A stretch of DNA of 64,000 nucleotides, taken from positions 1,153 through 65,152 of the forward strand of contig WAKA01000193.1 in the NCBI GenBank assembly GCA_015523565.1. Direction: 5' to 3'. The notes under the pieces were generated by a model. That model ran no database searches. It was not told the origin of the DNA and was given only the letters and a program-made list of their open reading frames with translations. Positions 667-62,904 of the stretch are shown in pieces; the first letter of the stretch is position 1, and each line of letters opens with the position of its first letter. The translations under genes and the position numbers were made by a program. The DNA comes from Candidatus Heimdallarchaeota archaeon (lineage in GTDB: Archaea > Asgardarchaeota > Heimdallarchaeia > Heimdallarchaeales > Kariarchaeaceae).

Positions 667-1167
667 TCAAGTCAAGAAACGATTGACAAGCCGGATTTCT
701 TGTGTTTCATCATTGTATTCAACGAGATTGGCATTTCTCAGGTCAAAGACAGCTTGTTTCACTTCAAGCAGTCGACTGCCAGATGCTTTTGCAAGTTCAT
801 CCAGCGTATATACAGGTTTTTCACCATGCAGGATCAAAAGGATACGGACGTGGACAGATGAGTTAAAGACATCGCCCATCAAGACAAGGTAAATGTCCAA
901 AAGTTTCAGGGCATCCACATCCTTCTTTTGTTCCTTGCTGAAAGATTCCAGTTTTTCTACAGCTTCATTGAATTGTTGTTCAATATGAGTCAGTTTTGCT
1001 TGGGCATCTGAATATTTTGCCTTCAATTCAGCTAATTCTGTTTCCAATGTCTGTATTTTTTGATGGAGTTCACCCTCCGTTTGATTCCTTTCATTTTTCA
1101 CCATTTCCCAGAAGCTATTGAGCTCCTGTTGGAGGGATTTAAACTTTTCTTCGGATTTCATAACCAT
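667..1167 (-). CDS. hypothetical protein, N-terminal coiled coil plus C-terminal winged-helix-like domain
   Basis: 166-aa ORF. The N-half is heptad-rich (ELHQKIQTLETELAELKAKYSDAQAKL). The C-half VYTLDELAKASGSRLLEVKQAVFDLRNANLVEY looks like a wHTH. Overlapping plus-strand ORFs are short and low complexity. Confidence 0.5.
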   Translation of the reverse strand: MVMKSEEKFKSLQQELNSFWEMVKNERNQTEGELHQKIQTLETELAELKAKYSDAQAKLTHIEQQFNEAVEKLESFSKEQKKDVDALKLLDIYLVLMGDVFNSSVHVRILLILHGEKPVYTLDELAKASGSRLLEVKQAVFDLRNANLVEYNDETQEIRLVNRFLT

Positions 1168-1532
1168 TGATTCATAGCCATTTCTTAAAGTTGTTGACTC
1201 GCAGAATTTTCACGGACTAAAAAAAAATAAAAGTGAAAACATAGAATTTTCCAGAATGGTTCAACGTTTTTCTTGTTTTCAGTAAGTTTGGGGACATACG
1301 GCGAAGTTGAAAGATAGATCTGTTTTTTGTCAAATTCTTCGAGTTATTTCCATTACTGATAGGATTGGAAAAACTAACTGCAATTTGGGGAAACATTTTT
1401 AGGAGCATTGTATGAGTGTTTCAAGTGTATAACCGTTTTAACTTGGCAATCGTATGGGAGTGGACAATAGGGATTTAGTTAGAGAATAACAGCAATTTAC
1501 TTTGAGATCAACGATGTTTTAAACAACGATAC

Positions 1533-52937: not shown

Positions 52938-53693
52938 ATGGAATTCCGCAAAGCCATTCTCAGGGAAGTACCTGATAGCTACAGAAGCTGTCTTTCAACG
53001 CATCCAATGCATGGAAATGTCAATGTCGAAAAGGCAAGGGAGCAACACAGGCAATACAGAAATGCCTTGGAAGAACTGGGGGTTGAAACAATCCTGCTAC
53101 CCAAATTGAATGAATTTCCAGATTCCTGTTTTGTGGAGGACAATGCGATTCTTCTTGGGAAACGTGCATTTATTACAAGAATGGGGGCATCTTCCAGAAG
53201 TGAGGAGACCAAGGCCATTGTTGATACATTGATGGAATTTTTTGAAATCAGGGATTGCCAAGCGCCAGGGACAATAGAGGGAGGAGATGTAATTACGTTG
53301 CAGGACAGGATGATTGCAGGCCTTAGCCAAAGGACGAACATGGATGGGGTCAGGCAGGCTGAGGAATGGTTGCAAAGAAAGTTCGATACGATTGAGGCAA
53401 GAGACATCATGCATTTGAAAAGCTATGTGACATTTGTTGGTGAGGACACATTTGTCTCGACTGAAAGGTTTGCAGACCATCCTACCCTTCAAGGCTCAAA
53501 GGTCATTGTGGTTCCGAAAGACGAGGAATATGGGGCAAATACATTGGAAGTGAATGGGGTTGTACTTCTATCCAGCAATGCACCAAATCTCAAAAAGGAA
53601 CTTAAGGCAGAGGGGTTTGAAACAGAAACTCTTGAAATGACTCAGTTCGAGTATTGCGATGGTGCCTTGACCTGCCTATCACTTAGATTTTAG
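52938..53693 (+). CDS. dimethylarginine dimethylaminohydrolase (DDAH)/amidinotransferase-fold enzyme
   Basis: 251 aa with DSCFVED, IEGGDVI, MHLKSY and a C-terminal catalytic-Cys context, [11 protein letters not shown]. Confidence 0.7.
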
Positions 53694-56069
53694 CTTTTTC
53701 TTGCGGAAACGGGAAAGCAGTGCCATTGGGATGACAACTAGAACTGGAAGATATCGTATTCCCGCAGATCGTGAGGCGGTTTGGGTAACTGTAACATTCT
53801 GTGTCGTCGTTGTGGTTTGGGTGATGGTCTGCTGAACCGTCGTGGTATTCCAGAGTTGTTCCGTTGTTGTAATGGTGATGCCCGTATTCGGAATGGGCAA
53901 TGCTATAGAGACAGGAAGGCTTAGTGAAGATTCACCTGCGGAATTGACCGCGGTAACGGCATAGGAATACTGGATATTCGGAACAACAGATACGTCAAGA
54001 TAGGTTGTGGCATTTGATTGACCGATCAATTCATATCCGACCCCATCATCCTTGTAAATATTGTAGTACAGGATCGAGGCACCGCCAGTGGCTGATGGCG
54101 GATCCCAGAACAAGAAAACACTGCCGTTGGAATTTATTGCAATCAAGGATTGGGGAGGGCTGGGGGGAACTGATGGAATTGTAACAATGACAACATTGGA
54201 GTTGCCGCTTTCCACAATCCCATTGTATGACCTAACGAAATATGAATAAGAGACCCCAAATTCGATATTTCCGTCAAAAAAGGATGACTGAACCGAAGTG
54301 CCGATTTGAGCAAAACCAGTACCGTCTGATCGAAAGATTCTATATTCCTGTATTGGAGACCCACCATCATAGCTTGGCGGTAGCCACTGTAAAAGCACGC
54401 CAGATGAATTTGATGTTGCCGTCAGGGACATGGGCACTGGAGTATACAAACCACCGTCCTTGATTTCCCATCCATAGGTCTGGATTATGGATTGCCTACC
54501 AAGGAAACCAACAGTTGAGTATTTTGCATCCCCCACACCAAAAGTCACGTTGGACTGCAAAGCCAGACCGCGCCATCCCGTTAACAGATCATCATAGTTT
54601 TGGGGCGAAATTGAAGTGTCATTCAGCATGTCATCCATCGAAACAACGAGAGAAACATTCCAAGAACCAAGGGGCTGGTCAAAAGCAAGCGCACCAAAAA
54701 ACATGGAGGACATGTCCGTAACGGATGAGGTATCCCAAGTTCCCAAGGGTTGGTTGAATGAGCTGGCTCCGTAAAACATGAAAGACATGTCAGAGACTTT
54801 TGAGACGTCCCATTGATCCAAGGGCTGATTGAAGGAGACGGCACCTGCAAACATCGAACGCGTTTTTACTGTATTTGACATGTCCCATGAATTTAGGCTT
54901 TGGTTGAATGCAGATGCACCATTGAACAACAGGCTCATGTCACTTATTTTTGAGACATTCCAGTTGTCCAAAGGCTGATTGAATGAGGAGGCTCCAGAAA
55001 ACATGTAACGGATGGAAATCACATTGGAAGTGTCCCATGTGTTGAGGGAATGATTGAAGGACTGTGCATACTGAAACATGCCCTCCATAAAAGAAACAGA
55101 GGAAACATCCCAGTTTTCCAAAGGTTGGTCAAAGGCACTTGCATAGGCAAACATTTGCGTCATTTGTGCAACGGACGAGACATCCCATGACGACAAATCC
55201 TGATTGAAGGAGCTCGCAGAGAAAAACATGTATTTCATGGATGTAACTGAAGAAGTATTCCAAGACCCAATAGGCTGATTGAATGAACTTGCCCCTTGGA
55301 ACATTCCCTCCATTGATGTGACCGAAGATGTATCCCATGAGGAAATTGATTGATTGAAGGAGGACGTATCGGCGAACATATACATCATAGAGGTAACAGA
55401 AGAGGTATTCCATGCCCCAATAGGCTGATTGAATGTGGTGGCACCTCGAAACATGGAATCCATGTTAGTGATGGTGGATGTGTCCCATGAGTTCATGCTA
55501 CCTTGGTCTCCCAAGCTTTTGGCATTCTGAAAAGCACTTTCCAAGGTGGTGGTATTCGAAAGGTCAGGAGAGTCTGTAGCGGTTAGCACCATGTTTTCAG
55601 CACCATAGAAATAACCGCCGCCATTTCCCAGCCCAATGTTTCCCCACTGTTTCAATTCAACAATGAGAAGCCTATCCCCTGCGTTGTTGAAGTTCCAACC
55701 AACCAAGACACCATCAATGACAACCGTATAAACACCAGCAGTTGAATAGGTATGGGTAGCCTGTGTCCAGCTTGTGATTGTCTCGTTTGTACCATCACCC
55801 CAATCAATTGAGAAGTTGTATGTACCTGTACTTAACAAAGGAAGTGTGATACTTTTTCCTGAGGCACTAACCTTTGTAGTGTCCCATACAGTTACAAAAG
55901 CAGATTGGGGATAGGTTGTCAATATCTTCTGTGGGGGTTTCGTCATTGCAAGGGATGATGCAGGAACAAGCATCACCGCAACGATCAATAATCCTGTCAA
56001 GATGATTTTTGGATGCACAATATTTACCTGTTGAAAAAATATTAAAACATTGGCAATTGAATGACACAT
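53679..56069 (-). CDS. BspA/DUF285-type leucine-rich-repeat surface protein with two FN3 domains and C-terminal TM anchor
   Basis: About 12 repeats of ...[11 protein letters not shown][LI]..W[DN][TV]S.V..M... They are followed by two FN3-like modules ([20 protein letters not shown] and [20 protein letters not shown]), a Thr-rich linker, a TM segment and a basic tail. Start taken as ATG 56069; the ORF is open to a TTG at 56081. Confidence 0.8.
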
Positions 56070-56104
56070 TAACCTTTCCAAAGGCGATACAGATAGGAGG
56101 CATC

Positions 56105-57635: not shown

Positions 57636-57920
57636 CTATTATGACTAAAGTTTGTTTTGCAACTCTTAAATTTTTTGAGATGCAAGCCAAATTTTGGAAA
57701 AGAAGGAGGAGGTTCTATACTAACTCCAATCCCATCCAGATCTATACAACCATTTGAGGCAGAAATTCAAAACAGTTTGTTTTCATTGCCAGCAACGACC
57801 CATTCTAGACTATTCGTAATATGCAATCCTTGCAAAGGAACTTGTCGGCAAAACTTTTTTATAATAGTCATGCGCAAAATAATATGCATCTATCGAAGGG
57901 GAGGGTGCCCCTTGAAAATC

Positions 57921-59090
57921 ATGAACATAGGAATTGTCAAGAATAAATTCGCCCCATGCATTTCTGTTGAGACCAAAGCGTCAAAATTGTTCCTGGATTG
58001 TGGCAAAATACAGAAAAACACACCCAGCATTCCGAATTTTGATGCTTTGGATGCTAAAATATCGGATTATGACATGATCTTTGTCAGTCACCTTCATTGG
58101 GATCATTTCGGGGGCGTCCAATACCTATGGGAAAACGGATTTGAAGGACAAATCATAGTCAGCAGGGAAACTGGTCATATTCTGAAAAGTTGGATTCAAA
58201 ATGGGGATATGGGGATATCAAGGGAATACGGCTCATGGATTTCCCGACATCTACGGGTTCTGAATTATTTTGAAAGGACAGAATGCATAAGGAAGCTAGA
58301 ATTGACCCTATTTCCCTCTTGGCATTCAATTGGTGCAGCAATGCTTCATTTGGAAGATTTACAAAGTGGACACACACTGCTCTATACAGGGGACATGGGA
58401 TTGGGGGATGAAGCCACCACTCGCATGATCAATGACAGAATAGAGCTAGTGATTTTTGATGGGAGTCTTTTTCAACTCAAGAAATCCAATGACCAACACC
58501 AAATTTTGCTCAAGCTGGGAAAGATCGTTGCCTCTGTCTTGAACTCATATATGAGTGTGGTTTTCCCCTTGTTCAAACTTCCATCCTTGATTCTTGTAAG
58601 ATATTTCTCAGAAATGCTTCGTGCAGGACAGTTCAATCCCATGACAAGGATATACCTTGACAAGGGATTTTTTGGCAGTGACTTGCCCATTTTTCCTGAA
58701 AATGTCAAAATTGTGAAAGACATGAAAACAATAGGTTCCCCTGCCATAATCTTCACCATTGACAAAGATGTGGAGATTCCGAACAGTATTACCATTTTTA
58801 CCGCTTTTGGGAACAATGGCGATGATTTGGAGAATTTCTATATCAGCAAGGAATTCATTGATTGGGGAGATCACAAGGGTAAATCATTCAAATTCCCATT
58901 CACCAATCATTTCACAAGACACCAAGGGAAGGAATTCTTCAGCAATATATCATGCAGAATTGCAGTTCCTTTCTTTTCAACAGACTATGGGATGTCCAAC
59001 CACTTGAAGAGTTGGTGGGAAAGGGAAATTTCCAATGGAGCCAATGAACCAACCTTCCAGATGTTTGGAGAAAATCCAATAATGCTATGA
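57921..59090 (+). CDS. metallo-beta-lactamase fold protein (beta-CASP-like)
   Basis: Trimmed to MNIGIVKNKF, with GGGGAGGGTG upstream and a TATA-like TTTTATAATA at 57857-57866. Carries VSHLHWDHFGG (HxHxDH) and LLYTGDMG. Confidence 0.65.
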   Translation: MNIGIVKNKFAPCISVETKASKLFLDCGKIQKNTPSIPNFDALDAKISDYDMIFVSHLHWDHFGGVQYLWENGFEGQIIVSRETGHILKSWIQNGDMGISREYGSWISRHLRVLNYFERTECIRKLELTLFPSWHSIGAAMLHLEDLQSGHTLLYTGDMGLGDEATTRMINDRIELVIFDGSLFQLKKSNDQHQILLKLGKIVASVLNSYMSVVFPLFKLPSLILVRYFSEMLRAGQFNPMTRIYLDKGFFGSDLPIFPENVKIVKDMKTIGSPAIIFTIDKDVEIPNSITIFTAFGNNGDDLENFYISKEFIDWGDHKGKSFKFPFTNHFTRHQGKEFFSNISCRIAVPFFSTDYGMSNHLKSWWEREISNGANEPTFQMFGENPIML

Positions 59091-59091
59091 T

Positions 59092-60114
59092 GTGATACAA
59101 ATGTTTGAGATAATAGAAAACATCAGAAATGACTTGGAAAATTCACCTGAAATCGTCAAAGACAAAAATAGAAATGACATGAAGCTTGCGGAGGCTATAA
59201 TAAAAGATTCAATGACGTATCCGCCAAGATTGCTTCCTGATGTGGATGAAATGACAATATTGAATAGACTTAGGCAATCAAAGCTTGCAAAGCCAGTTTA
59301 CAGAAGATATTGGATCAATCTTTCAGAGAACCTATGTGAAAGAATCCTTGGATTGAATGACGATTTGATGTGGATACGGGAAAACAAAAAGAAATTGCTG
59401 GATCTTGGAAAAACGGACTTGACTGCAAAAATATTCTGGTTGGTGCTATTGAAGATCATTGAGTCCAATGAAGAACAACTTCCATGGGATGAAACATTGG
59501 TACATTCATTGCAATTGTTGAGTCCAAGATTTAGGGCGAGACATTTCAGGCAGATTGTCAAGGAAAGCGAGATGATACTTTATGGGGCAAATATAACCGC
59601 AAAACGAACAACGGAGGATGCTGCATCATTACTTCAGTATCTCGAAACCCTGATCAATACCGACATTTCCTCACAGGAAGAGTTAGAAGATCTCAAGTCA
59701 GGATTGTCAAGGATGCACGAGACACTGACATCCATTTTCCAGTCCTTCATCGAAGAGCTTGACCTTGTGAAAAACCTGTCGGTCAGAAACTTCATCTCGA
59801 CAATGAACACAGAAAATTCAGGATTTTTATTGGATATGGTCTTCCGAGCCCTTTCCTCACCAGAACAGGGCTTGGAAACGGAATTTGTCCAGCTTTTTGG
59901 ACAATTCCTCAGAATGAATGAAATAAACCCCATCTTTCCTCTTGGAAGGATGCAGATGGAAAAGTCTCAATTGCCAATGATTGACTACATAGGAAGTCCA
60001 TTCGATGGCGATGATGAGAAAAAACTAGTGGAAATTTCCGCTCCGGGGTGGAGGTATAAGGATCATATTATCTCCAAAGCCCGGGCAGTGGAGGTAATAG
60101 AAAATGAGCAATAA
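59092..60114 (+). CDS. hypothetical alpha-helical protein with GrpE-like C-terminal segment
   Basis: 340 aa. The last 50 aa, IGSPFDGDDEKKLVEISAPGWRYKDHIISKARAVEV, resemble the GrpE beta-domain (G..FDP..H.A...GY...R.lR.A.V.V). The gene abuts the MBL gene and overlaps the Hsp70-like gene by 11 nt. Confidence 0.5.
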   Translation: MIQMFEIIENIRNDLENSPEIVKDKNRNDMKLAEAIIKDSMTYPPRLLPDVDEMTILNRLRQSKLAKPVYRRYWINLSENLCERILGLNDDLMWIRENKKKLLDLGKTDLTAKIFWLVLLKIIESNEEQLPWDETLVHSLQLLSPRFRARHFRQIVKESEMILYGANITAKRTTEDAASLLQYLETLINTDISSQEELEDLKSGLSRMHETLTSIFQSFIEELDLVKNLSVRNFISTMNTENSGFLLDMVFRALSSPEQGLETEFVQLFGQFLRMNEINPIFPLGRMQMEKSQLPMIDYIGSPFDGDDEKKLVEISAPGWRYKDHIISKARAVEVIENEQ

Positions 60115-62800
60115 GATATTTTATGGAATAGATCTGGGTACAACCAATTCATCGATCTCATTCGCTGTTGAGGATGAGAGCAAAGGGAAAATCAACGTCA
60201 ACACAATACCCCTGAAACTGTTGGATGTTGATGGTTCATTGAAGACTACTGACCTCTTGCCTTCCTTTTTTTACAAGGACGGCAATGTAGAGTACGTCGG
60301 CGAATATGCAAAAGGGAAAAGGCAAACCTCCCCAAACAATGTCATACAATCCGTGAAGATTGACATGGGAAGTGAAAAGAAGTATTTCATTGCAGGAGAA
60401 GAATTCACCCCTGTCGAAATCTCTGCGAAATTCCTGTCTGAGCTGAAAAGACAGGCTAAAACATCCACAAGGCTCGAAGTCAAGGAGGCAATCATCGCCG
60501 TTCCCGCAAACTTTGACCACCAAATGAGGCGGGCAACATTGGAAGCCGCAAAAAGGGCAGGATTTGAGGTGTTGGAAAGTGACGGTACTTTCAAGCAGGA
60601 TGTCCTCATTGATGAACCACATGCCGTCCTCTATGATTTGCTTCATAGGCAACAAAGCGGGGAGTTCCCAAAACCGCTGATCCCTGAAGACAGGGAATCC
60701 GTGGTGCTTGTCTATGACTTCGGAGGAGGGACACTCGATGTCAGCATGTACACCGTAAGTGTACGTAAGGACAAACTCCTTGATGTCAAGCCCATTGCAA
60801 TCGGCAGATATACTGAAATCGGCGGAGACAGTTTTGATATCCGCGTACGTGACTGGATAAAGGAGGAATTCCTCAAGGAGAACCCAAACATAAAATGGGA
60901 GAACCTGAGTGATTACAAGAAAGTGGAATTCCTCACTCGTGCATTGATTGCCGCAGAACAGGCAAAATATGAGCTTGTTCGATTGGAACAGGGAGTCAAT
61001 CTGTCAGGATCCGCATGGGGGGCAATCATTGGGTCGACTGAACCCACTGCAATGCTTTCAACAGGTTTCCTTGTCGGAAACAAGACATTCTCAAGAAACA
61101 TCACCAAAGAAGATTACAAGGAAATTGTCAAGAATCTGCTTGGTTTGGACTTCGACTATAATGACCACGAATCACTTGGCATATTCCGAAGCAAAGAGGA
61201 GAAAAACAACATCGTGTTTCCTGTCCTTGATGTTTTGAACAAGGCTTCAAAGAAATTGGGGGAGGTGCCACCAATAGACTTAGTTCTGTGCTCCGGTGGA
61301 ATGACAAACTTCTCAATAATCAGGGAAAGGATCAAGGAATTGTTGAATATTGAACCTTTTCAAATCTCAGATCCAGAAAAGGCAGTGTCAAGGGGGGCGG
61401 CAATTTATGGGGTCTATAGGTCAAAAGGAATAATGAACGTCACCACACTTGCGGAGACGCTATCATTAGAAATCGAGGGAGGCTTTACCACAATCCTTGC
61501 AGAGGCGGGGATAGCATTGCCATACAAGCACGAAGTTGAAGAGTTTTTTGTCATCCCAAAATCAGGTACGCAACAGATTGCACTTCCAATCTATAAGGGG
61601 GAGGAAGAAAGGGCAAGTGAAAACATAAAACTGAAATCATTCATATTTGACCTTGACAAACCGTATCCAAAAGGAACAAGGATTTCAATCGAGGTTGACG
61701 TAGACAGGAACAAAATCGTCACACTGCGGGCATGGATAACAGAAAATCCAAACGTGAAATTTGAAGGCGTGATCAAGCCAGAGGATAGCAAGGATATAGG
61801 CTTACAGAAACAGCAAAGCAAAGAGAAACAACCTGTCAAGAATGAGGAAGGGATACAAATAAAATACCCGCCAATAGATGTTGAGGCTGTGCTGAACAAA
61901 TACTTGGCAATTACGGACAGAAACACGGAGGCTGGATTGAGGGAATTGGAAACAAAACTGGCAAACGCACCCAACGGAAAGGATGCAATTCCTAAACTCT
62001 GGAAAAAATACAACAGCAATAATGTCACCAATGCAGGTCTGAAAAGGATTCCCATGCTAATGTCCAAGATATACAAAAAGCATCCCAATGAACCGTTCAA
62101 AAAGGAGTTTTCAGAAAAAATCTGCAAGATCTTGAACTCTGACATGCTCCTTTTGTCACAACGCATGCAAGACGAACTGTTCGGTGCCATATGGGCAGTC
62201 GCGGAACTGGAAATAAGAAAAGCATTGCCTGCATTAAGAAGACTGATTAGGCAAAAAATGATCCGAAACCTGCAAGATGCAGTTATAACCCTAGGGAAAG
62301 TGGGTTATACAATCGAGGATCTTGACTTGACCAAAGAAATATTCAATGAGGCTTTCCAAAAACGGAAAAAGGGGTTAATGATCAGCTCGGCATGGAGCAT
62401 TGGAAAATTGGCATCTCGTGAACTCAAACCGCCAATCCCACGATCAGAATTTTATGGAATAATTGATAAGCTTGCAAATCAGGCAATGTTTTACTCAAAA
62501 AATGGAAGATTCAACAACAGCATGCTTCGAAATGTCATCTTCGCTTTTGGAGAAATGGCGGATTCCAGAAATTCCAATGAATTCCATCCCACCCAAAAAA
62601 GGAAAATAATCGGGCATCTGGCAGATCTCCAAAGTTCACTATCGATTACCGTGCGAAATGCAACAGAAATCAGGCAAAAAGAGATAGGGTATCTCCTTGG
62701 ATTGATGGATACTGTCAGGAAAATGATAAGGGGAGAACAATTAACCGAAGATGAGGAACGCACATTGCTTGCAATAAGATCAAACATTGACTTATCATAG
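60104..62800 (+). CDS. atypical Hsp70-family ATPase: NBD plus SBD-beta plus C-terminal HEAT-like repeats
   Basis: GIDLGTTNSSI, IIAVPANFD, LIDEPHAVL, VYDFGGGTLDVS, IGGDSFD, CSGGMTNF and EKAVSRGAAIYG together make a full actin-like NBD. The stretch TLSLEIEGGFTTIL...LPIYKGEE...ISIEVDVDRNKIVTL corresponds to SBD-beta. The last 330 aa carry repeats such as AIWAVAELE..ALPALRRLI, AVITLGKVG, SAWSIGKLAS and VIFAFGEMAD. GGAGGT lies 8 nt upstream. Confidence 0.8.
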   Translation: MSNKIFYGIDLGTTNSSISFAVEDESKGKINVNTIPLKLLDVDGSLKTTDLLPSFFYKDGNVEYVGEYAKGKRQTSPNNVIQSVKIDMGSEKKYFIAGEEFTPVEISAKFLSELKRQAKTSTRLEVKEAIIAVPANFDHQMRRATLEAAKRAGFEVLESDGTFKQDVLIDEPHAVLYDLLHRQQSGEFPKPLIPEDRESVVLVYDFGGGTLDVSMYTVSVRKDKLLDVKPIAIGRYTEIGGDSFDIRVRDWIKEEFLKENPNIKWENLSDYKKVEFLTRALIAAEQAKYELVRLEQGVNLSGSAWGAIIGSTEPTAMLSTGFLVGNKTFSRNITKEDYKEIVKNLLGLDFDYNDHESLGIFRSKEEKNNIVFPVLDVLNKASKKLGEVPPIDLVLCSGGMTNFSIIRERIKELLNIEPFQISDPEKAVSRGAAIYGVYRSKGIMNVTTLAETLSLEIEGGFTTILAEAGIALPYKHEVEEFFVIPKSGTQQIALPIYKGEEERASENIKLKSFIFDLDKPYPKGTRISIEVDVDRNKIVTLRAWITENPNVKFEGVIKPEDSKDIGLQKQQSKEKQPVKNEEGIQIKYPPIDVEAVLNKYLAITDRNTEAGLRELETKLANAPNGKDAIPKLWKKYNSNNVTNAGLKRIPMLMSKIYKKHPNEPFKKEFSEKICKILNSDMLLLSQRMQDELFGAIWAVAELEIRKALPALRRLIRQKMIRNLQDAVITLGKVGYTIEDLDLTKEIFNEAFQKRKKGLMISSAWSIGKLASRELKPPIPRSEFYGIIDKLANQAMFYSKNGRFNNSMLRNVIFAFGEMADSRNSNEFHPTQKRKIIGHLADLQSSLSITVRNATEIRQKEIGYLLGLMDTVRKMIRGEQLTEDEERTLLAIRSNIDLS

Positions 62801-62904
62801 ATTGAAGATTATTGCCTAAATGCAGAACCACGAAAATTTGAAGATAATTGTCTAAATGCTGAACCATAAAAATTTGAGAAAAATAGACCAAATTTGAACC
62901 AAAA
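62801..62904. repeat. three imperfect tandem copies of a 35-36-bp unit
   Basis: ATTGAAGATTATTGCCTAAATGCAGAACCACGAAA, then ATTTGAAGATAATTGTCTAAATGCTGAACCATAAAA, then a degenerate third copy. The array starts directly after the Hsp70-like stop codon. Confidence 0.8.

Follow-up and report, generated by a model that had tools for sequence, protein, structure and literature searches.

A conserved three-gene module encoding a beta-CASP-type hydrolase, a GrpE-like protein and an Hsp70 with a HEAT-like solenoid in archaea and bacteria

What might an Hsp70 chaperone accomplish that lacks the helical lid of its family, carries a long alpha-helical solenoid in its place, and is encoded immediately behind a predicted nuclease and a protein that resembles a nucleotide-exchange factor? 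The question is raised by a contig of Candidatus Heimdallarchaeota archaeon (WAKA01000193.1, assembly GCA_015523565.1), of which positions 1,153 to 65,152, a stretch of 64,000 nucleotides referred to below as ‘the window’, were analysed. At window positions 57921-62800, three co-oriented open reading frames on the forward strand (here termed a, b and c) fill the whole interval. Their products can be assigned to families and their catalytic motifs are intact, and the genes are strictly linked, in operon fashion, across two domains of life. The three proteins very likely constitute one functional unit, made up of a beta-CASP nuclease and a catalytically competent, lid-less Hsp70-HEAT protein with a GrpE-type factor dedicated to it. 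The composition of this module is well supported; a biological role may be proposed for it from its parts and its relatives.

The three proteins

Gene c (60104-62800, + strand) encodes 898 amino acids. Its nucleotide-binding domain (NBD; residues 1-440, 60104-61423) matches the Pfam family PF00012 at 3e-48, retains intact catalytic motifs and is modelled by AlphaFold with a predicted local distance difference test score (pLDDT) of approximately 90. It is followed by an interdomain linker and the beta subdomain of the substrate-binding domain (SBD-beta; residues 441-560, 61424-61783), as judged from alignment to DnaK and from a beta-sandwich in the model; by a disordered, charged linker (residues 561-592, 61784-61879; pLDDT 31-46); and by a HEAT-like alpha-solenoid of 15 helices (residues 593-898, 61880-62800; pLDDT approximately 90) that occupies the place of the Hsp70 helical lid. 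The model as a whole (pLDDT 86.8) delimits the NBD at residues 1-440, SBD-beta at 450-556, the disordered segment at 561-587 and the 15-helix solenoid at 593-892, and its best matches of low root-mean-square deviation in the PDB, as found by Foldseek, are domain-docked states of Hsp70 (template modelling (TM) scores of 0.75-0.78). The helical lid itself (SBD-alpha) was sought in gene c and is absent: after residue 556 the modelled chain passes into the disordered linker and then into the solenoid.

The motifs of the NBD can be aligned with those of DnaK (GIDLGTTNS, K85 as the equivalent of K70, DEPHA, DFGGGTLDVS, GGDSFD, SGGMT and RGAAIYG), and a set of 52 homologues shows no variation at residues D10, T13, T14, K85, E171, D205, G207-209, T210 and D212. 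A second stretch of HMMER alignment pairs residues 370-544, which include SBD-beta, with residues 281-458 of Geobacillus kaustophilus DnaK (2v7y). HEAT models are matched by a varying share of the same 52 homologues: HEAT_2 by 21 (best 8e-8), HEAT_PBS by eight and HEAT_EZ by four. The solenoid tail is basic in the window copy, with an isoelectric point of 9.75; the family median is 8.0, and only about half of the members exceed 8. A preliminary description of the locus, made from the sequence alone, had interpreted gene c as an 898-residue Hsp70 with NBD motifs and SBD-beta in which HEAT-like repeats replace the lid, and both the invariance of the motifs and the solenoid of approximately 300 residues bear this out.

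The further possibility that gene c is simply a canonical DnaK did not survive comparison with the DnaK equivalog models (TIGR02350 and NF001413), against which it scores 165-167 bits where the cut-offs are 822.55 and 648, or the presence of the HEAT tail. The residue aligned with R167 of DnaK, a contact for DnaJ, is valine in gene c and isoleucine in the family consensus (alignments read by eye). As the preliminary description had also noted for the window, no open reading frame for a J-domain protein was found, either there or in any fetched locus, by a search of limited sensitivity that used J-domain queries from three E. coli proteins. A marginal match at window positions 670-1209 was rejected because it has no HPD motif; it corresponds to a coiled-coil protein with a possible C-terminal region resembling a helix-turn-helix.

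Gene b (59092-60114, + strand) proved considerably harder to place. Taken alone, it has no match in Pfam (where GrpE does not appear at E<=1), NCBIfam or PADLOC. Word-index protein searches gave just 5-10 relatives, and an exhaustive profile search was required to delineate a family of 324 clusters at 50% identity, mostly 330-390 amino acids in length, that is best conserved over its C-terminal 150 or so residues. When members of this family were scanned against Pfam individually, PF01025 (GrpE) was matched by 55 of 120, with a best value of 6.9e-8, and the next family by nine. Comparison of the family with three GrpE sequences by hhalign (the E. coli sequence having been checked against 1DKG) gave a collinear alignment of b residues 196-329 with residues 42-187 of E. 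coli GrpE, at P=0.002. Profile searches of PDB sequences with two gene b alignments did not reach significance for GrpE (4ani at E 0.74), and the link to GrpE was for that reason drawn from the scans of individual members and from a structure model.

That model (AlphaFold, pLDDT 78) consists of an N-terminal helical domain, a very long helical region and then a GrpE-like layout, with helices at residues 195-238, 246-255 and 263-275 and six strands between 278 and 334. In a Foldseek search of the PDB, the second-ranked match was GrpE of M. tuberculosis bound to DnaK (8gb3_E; probability 0.97, E-value 0.25, target-normalised TM 0.54 over 146 columns), and GrpE of T. thermophilus (3a6m) ranked 17th. 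The protein may thus be divided into an N-terminal part (residues 1-194, 59092-59673), comprising a family-specific, all-helical domain (pLDDT 80-93 over residues 31-130) and an extra long helix, and a C-terminal GrpE-like module (residues 195-340, 59674-60114) that is predicted to act as a nucleotide-exchange factor. The preliminary description had seen a likeness to GrpE in the last 50 residues of gene b; the likeness is real and a GrpE fold is recovered in the model, but it extends over some 145 residues (approximately 195-340). From the family alignments and the predicted fold, it is concluded that gene b encodes what appears to be a GrpE homologue that has diverged deeply and carries an N-terminal extension of approximately 190 residues, peculiar to the family and a possible adaptor. 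The N-terminal domain is present twice in three family members (P0184, P0191 and P0232), and in another (P0256, a cluster representative of 732 amino acids) genes a and b are fused, so that a metallo-beta-lactamase (MBL) nuclease at residues 4-378 precedes a GrpE-like protein at 391-731. This fusion, together with the extra domain on b, suggests that gene b bridges the nuclease to the NBD of the Hsp70.

Gene a (57921-59090, + strand; 389 amino acids) encodes an MBL-fold hydrolase of the beta-CASP type and a predicted nuclease. In Pfam it matches Lactamase_B_2 at 2e-10 and also Lactamase_B; in NCBIfam the top models are aCPSF1, a beta-CASP ribonuclease (1.6e-18), and then Cas14, the nuclease of type VII systems built on clustered regularly interspaced short palindromic repeats (CRISPR; 2.9e-11). 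Its scores lie far below the equivalog cut-offs of these families (66 bits vs 580 for aCPSF1, 42 vs 800 for Cas14 and 20 vs 400 for RNase J). All of 16 homologues collected beside related Hsp70 genes match aCPSF1 (best 9e-61), Cas14 (best 9e-56) and RNase J, and for this family the Cas14 scores are nearly equal to those of aCPSF1.

MBL motifs 1-4 are all present in gene a (D26, H57-x-H59-x-D61-H62, H135 and D158). The residues S56, H57, H59, D61, H62, H135, D158 and H330 are invariant in the 16 homologues; D26 is not among them. The HLHWDH and YTGD motifs (residues 57-62 and 155-158), from which the preliminary description had recognised an MBL/beta-CASP-like protein, belong to a conserved metal site in a protein that Pfam also assigns to this fold. 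Approximately 170 residues separate motif 4 (D158) from the invariant H330, a candidate for motif B, and this distance fits the size of a beta-CASP insert; D247, a candidate for motif A, is nearly invariant. The motif C histidine (..VHs/c..) is kept in bacterial copies and replaced in the window copy and its archaeal relatives, and the Pfam domains Beta-Casp and RMMBL are detected in the homologues from Poribacteria only. On the strength of the matches to beta-CASP models, the invariant metal ligands, the insert-sized gap and the domains detected in Poribacteria, it is very probable that gene a encodes an active metallo-nuclease and represents a beta-CASP subfamily of its own. Several gene a homologues, including that of the window, also have precomputed Pfam matches to Anti-Pycsar_Apyc1, a family of cyclic-nucleotide phosphodiesterases, and the alternative of a small-molecule hydrolase therefore stays alive.

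The genes are closely packed. Gene c overlaps gene b by exactly 11 nucleotides, as first described. The accompanying claim of a 1-nucleotide gap between a and b depends on the start chosen for gene b: the spacer is 1 nucleotide if translation begins at GTG 59092 (340 amino acids) and 10 if it begins at ATG 59101 (337 amino acids), the start favoured by homologue alignments and public gene calls. Gene a likewise has an alternative start at TTG 57912, giving the 392 residues of the public calls. Some 55 nucleotides 5' of gene a, a TATA-box-like element (TTTTTTATAATAG, 57855-57867, + strand) was read from the sequence and represents a possible archaeal promoter of an a-b-c operon; a second element (GGGGAGGG, 57898-57905, + strand) precedes both candidate starts of gene a (TTG 57912 and ATG 57921) and may be a Shine-Dalgarno-like signal. 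Scans of the module region for sigma-70-type (bacterial) promoters and for terminators gave no more than chance-level matches. The guanine-plus-cytosine content of the three genes (approximately 0.38-0.44) is like that of the remaining window. A tandem repeat of a 36-nucleotide unit (62802-62877; 2.1 copies, 87% matches) lies directly after the stop codon of gene c.

Conservation and surroundings of the trio

To establish how far the arrangement extends, loci were gathered from gene c homologues and gene b patterns and annotated with home-made profiles (locus designations, L, are those of this collection). In every locus with enough sequence, the order a-b-c is kept on one strand, usually with overlapping genes or a few bases between them. 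The hosts include uncultured archaea (L001, L004 and L010) and, among bacteria, Lachnospiraceae, Ruminococcus, Lachnoanaerobaculum saburreum DSM 3986, Selenomonadales, Megamonas hypermegale and Treponema. Candidatus Poribacteria contributed 11 trio loci from about 10 metagenome-assembled genomes at 67-100% identity. The synteny proposed as a check on the first reading of the locus is accordingly conserved in archaea and in at least four bacterial lineages. The family is nevertheless thinly spread: one strict peptide pattern for gene b, which undercounts, gave 11 species matches among 185,579 species genomes.

Certain lineages display additions to this plan. In one branch of Poribacteria (L046:2059-5871; also L047 and L048), the Hsp70-HEAT reading frame comprises 1270 amino acids, with an N-terminal extension of approximately 310 residues for which no PDB sequence match was found. 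Also in Poribacteria, a DUF402 gene (L005:4868-5386; L008:4913-5449) lies 9-26 nucleotides upstream of the beta-CASP gene, after genes for RACo and a methyltransferase, and may be a lineage-specific fourth component. In the closest archaeal relatives (L001:4097-5552; L010:6157-7609), a gene for a Ras/Roc-like small GTPase and a gene of approximately 302-308 codons are located divergently upstream.

The flanks of the module differ in almost every lineage. In the window, its neighbours are a DUF285/fn3 surface protein, an amidinotransferase-fold enzyme, an MFS transporter, an amine oxidase, an EEP nuclease/phosphatase and a ProRS-like fragment. The first of these, a predicted surface protein of 800 amino acids encoded at 53679-56081, contains four DUF285 repeat regions (E 2e-118) and a pair of fn3 domains and has no relation to the module. 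The divergent upstream gene, of 447 codons, had been described as Roadblock/longin-like, for which there is only a faint Pfam hint (E 0.62); the gene was rejected as a part of the module and is considered incidental, as no homologue adjoins any other copy.

Genes of defence or mobile elements are met with from place to place: restriction-modification genes at L008 and L019 (the latter of the Eco57I type) and TnpB at L021. In a bacterial genome of 2.28 Mb (L033:3226-4906; L034:6-1685), a CARF gene (Cas_APE2256) and an MJ1673-family gene adjoin the module divergently, with no CRISPR-cas effector genes in view. In Megamonas hypermegale (L006:11008-13987), a four-gene cassette encoding a methyltransferase, a nucleotide-kinase-like protein, a radical SAM protein of 255 amino acids and a GreA/B-like protein lies directly downstream of the module and is missing in another strain (L007). 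When 117 neighbour proteins were pooled and scanned with PADLOC, only a handful matched defence models strongly. Viperin (pVip) models were matched by two of the 117, and the radical SAM protein of the Megamonas cassette is probably one of these two.

Hsp70-HEAT relatives and comparable systems

The architecture of gene c recurs in a very different setting. P0120, a protein of 1373 amino acids, is a fusion of an N-terminal RAMP domain, DUF8426, Hsp70 and HEAT repeats, in which the Hsp70-HEAT part is collinear with residues 8-892 of gene c, solenoid included (E 2e-58, 24% identity). It is encoded in a type III CRISPR-like locus (L032:1797-24122) together with two giant RRM+RAMP proteins, a Cas10 palm domain, three Hsp70 paralogues that consist of an NBD only, another RAMP protein, Csx19, Cas6 and a CARF (Cas_APE2256) protein. 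On a short contig (L037:1215-8804) where no cas genes are visible, three NBD-only Hsp70 paralogues are followed by a DUF8426-Hsp70-HEAT protein (P0114, 1196 amino acids), an arrangement that matches the Hsp70 gene set of L032. Both proteins share with gene c the collinear Hsp70-HEAT part, and differ from it in their N-terminal RAMP/DUF8426 extensions and in their company, namely NBD-only Hsp70 paralogues and, in L032, cas genes; no gene resembling a or b was detected at either locus. No description of Hsp70 genes inside a CRISPR effector locus of this kind was found in the literature.

A further parallel is provided by the type III CoCoNuT McrBC systems, which carry CnuD or CnuCD proteins with Hsp70 NBD and SBD followed by HEAT-like repeats (Bell et al., eLife 2024, PMC11090510). 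The comparison is with the published description rather than with sequences. As in the trio, CnuD is encoded with nucleases, in what are predicted to be RNA-targeting conflict systems. However, the ATPase of CnuD is reported to have degenerate Walker A-like motifs (PMC11090510), whereas the ATPase motifs of the gene c family are invariant; gene c has a beta-CASP enzyme and a GrpE-like protein for partners, and the long coiled-coil partners of CoCoNuTs are missing. No McrB-like NxD GTPase, McrC/DUF2357 or HEPN protein is encoded by the neighbours of the module in the window or by the annotated flanks elsewhere, the annotation of the latter being partial.

With the canonical DnaK-GrpE(-DnaJ) system, the trio shares an NBD, interdomain linker and SBD-beta in its Hsp70, an adjacent GrpE-type gene, and, within that gene, the succession of long helix, small helical bundle and beta domain. 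It differs in having a HEAT solenoid instead of the helical lid, no linked J-domain gene that could be found, a GrpE-like protein that is longer by approximately 190 N-terminal residues and beyond detection from single sequences, and an obligatory nuclease gene. The bacterial Hsp70 types recognised in a 2021 review are DnaK, HscA and HscC, of which only DnaK uses GrpE (PMC8215388).

Gene a, for its part, resembles aCPSF1, RNase J and Cas14 in its MBL core (HxHxDH, His, Asp and His ligands) and in a putative beta-CASP insert; unlike them, it has no KH, N-terminal or Cas10-like adaptor domains, the putative insert is shortened, its archaeal copies lack the motif C histidine and its scores fall far short of their equivalog cut-offs. 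In type VII CRISPR systems, the effector that cuts RNA is the beta-CASP enzyme Cas14 (PMC10910872). The concept of a chaperone that gates a toxic effector or senses infection is also met with (PMC13069673, PMC12169576, PMC12642450) in toxin-antitoxin-chaperone (TAC) systems and in the chaperone-linked immune sensors bNACHT25-DnaJ and DnaK-like domains fused to EACC1 protease modules. With these the trio would share, by analogy, the principle of chaperone control over an effector; TAC employs a SecB-like chaperone, and neither antitoxin nor protease is encoded at the trio.

Possible roles of the module

Taken together, these comparisons lead us to favour, tentatively and as a possible rather than a probable account, a module for the surveillance of nucleic acids or for defence, in which a beta-CASP nuclease is under the control of an Hsp70 switch that is driven by ATP and reset by a GrpE-like factor of its own. 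In such a scheme, the Hsp70 would hydrolyse ATP and clamp a peptide segment in SBD-beta, while the HEAT solenoid, in the position of the lid, would present a surface that docks or senses a partner protein, a ribonucleoprotein or nucleic acid. The GrpE-like protein, presumably a dimer, would bind the NBD, accelerate the release of ADP and so set the dwell time of the clamped state, and its additional N-terminal domain would tether the nuclease. Binding or release by the Hsp70 would then license the nuclease to cut RNA (or, less likely, DNA), for the purpose of nucleic-acid surveillance or of defence against invading elements. We infer, rather than observe, the formation of an a-b-c complex, the exchange activity of b, the direction of control, the substrate of the nuclease and a defensive role.

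Surveillance or defence is preferred as the purpose because Hsp70-HEAT architectures have been recruited to CRISPR-like and McrBC systems, because Cas14 offers a precedent for a beta-CASP effector (PMC10910872), because the distribution of the trio across domains is patchy and because defence or mobile-element genes are occasionally found beside it. A number of observations weigh on the other side. The genes that flank the module are mostly of a housekeeping character (for example, those for rRNA methyltransferases, PheRS, topoisomerase and sigma-70), and a defence or mobile gene lies within four genes of it in about 5-6 of 16 non-redundant loci, which is suggestive at best. None of the three genes has a significant match in PADLOC-DB 2.0 (best E-values 0.026 and 0.016), and searches of viral contigs, like tblastn searches of phage genomes and plasmids, gave no match to the gene b family. 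In Poribacteria the module stays at a single locus in more than 10 species, with copies of 67-100% identity, which looks like stable vertical inheritance and not like the turnover of defence genes. Finally, the gene b of the window itself falls below detection against GrpE, its link to that family passing through its relatives and a model of pLDDT 78. In view of its mostly housekeeping neighbours, the few defence matches among them and its absence from the viral, phage and plasmid sets, the module behaves as a portable, self-contained cassette and is not a typical resident of defence islands.

Much of this evidence would suit a role in housekeeping RNA processing or quality control, in which the Hsp70-HEAT protein delivers the beta-CASP RNase to some ribonucleoprotein of the cell (for instance at stalled ribosomes, nascent chains, or precursors of rRNA or tRNA) and the GrpE-like factor recycles the Hsp70, with no part in any conflict. 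The character of the neighbours, the single stable locus in Poribacteria, the lack of the family in the phages, plasmids and viral contigs searched, and the lack of significant PADLOC matches are all what this explanation would lead one to expect, and the nearest enzyme families of gene a, aCPSF1 and RNase J, are nucleases of RNA maturation. It appears somewhat unlikely nonetheless, as a family so rare and patchy (11 species matches to one strict pattern in 185,579 genomes, and 324 clusters) is unexpected of a core function, as its flanks vary in almost every lineage, and as Hsp70-HEAT relatives have been recruited to CRISPR-like and McrBC systems.

Another explanation, which we regard as improbable, is that of a dedicated maturation system comparable to HscA/HscB for iron-sulphur proteins, in which the Hsp70 and its exchange factor would fold or metal-load an MBL enzyme that is in fact a hydrolase of small molecules, such as a cyclic-nucleotide hydrolase of the Apyc1 type. 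The Anti-Pycsar_Apyc1 matches of several gene a homologues, the window's included, agree with this idea, as does the CARF gene (of a family of cyclic-oligoadenylate sensors) beside the module in L033 and L034, and Hsp70s that serve a single client have a precedent in HscA (PMC8215388). Against it, the best scores of all 16 gene a homologues are those to beta-CASP nucleases (up to 9e-61), the copies from Poribacteria contain the Pfam Beta-Casp and RMMBL domains, the putative insert of approximately 170 residues between motif 4 and the next histidine is as in beta-CASP enzymes, and mere assistance in folding would hardly account for a HEAT solenoid of 300 residues or for the additional domain of the exchange factor.

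An ordinary DnaK-GrpE pair preceded by an unrelated gene, for which the Hsp70 and GrpE homologies as such might speak, can be excluded, given scores of 165-167 bits against DnaK cut-offs of 648-822, HEAT repeats where the lid should be, a gene b that on its own escapes the GrpE model, no dnaJ found with queries of limited sensitivity, an MBL gene that is always present, and the occurrence of the module in bacterial lineages that generally have a canonical dnaK operon as well.

The expectation, voiced in the preliminary description, of a specialised Hsp70 machine with its own exchange factor and a hydrolase or nuclease partner has been strengthened by the GrpE homology of the b family, by the synteny of the three genes and by the departure of gene c from canonical DnaK. 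The favoured scheme of an Hsp70 switch governing a nuclease can be carried further, to a more ambitious proposal that should be considered unlikely for the present: that the trio represents an unrecognised family of immunity or RNA surveillance, in which a J-independent Hsp70 sensor would clamp a foreign or aberrant polypeptide or ribonucleoprotein through SBD-beta and HEAT repeats and license a beta-CASP RNase, with the timing set by a GrpE-type factor of its own, the Hsp70-HEAT sensor having been recruited independently by McrBC (CoCoNuT) systems and a type III CRISPR variant.

A trio of beta-CASP, GrpE-like and Hsp70-HEAT proteins was not found described in a literature search of incomplete coverage that included Hsp70 reviews, a survey of archaeal DnaK and papers on the discovery of defence systems; it is apparently an undescribed variant of Hsp70/GrpE machines and of Hsp70-HEAT conflict systems. 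As such, it would add a fourth, widespread type of bacterial Hsp70 to DnaK, HscA and HscC (types as given in PMC8215388), one that has no linked J-protein and carries a HEAT solenoid where the lid would be, and that comes with an obligatory nuclease partner and a deeply diverged exchange factor of its own. It would also provide a compact, three-gene system for the study of an Hsp70 cycle coupled to nucleic-acid cleavage, and Lachnoanaerobaculum saburreum DSM 3986 and Megamonas hypermegale are among the cultured bacteria from which it is available. Beyond this, it ties together three separate settings of the Hsp70-HEAT architecture (the trio itself, CoCoNuT and the type III-like CRISPR locus), which suggests that conflict systems of prokaryotes reuse it as a sensor or adaptor module.

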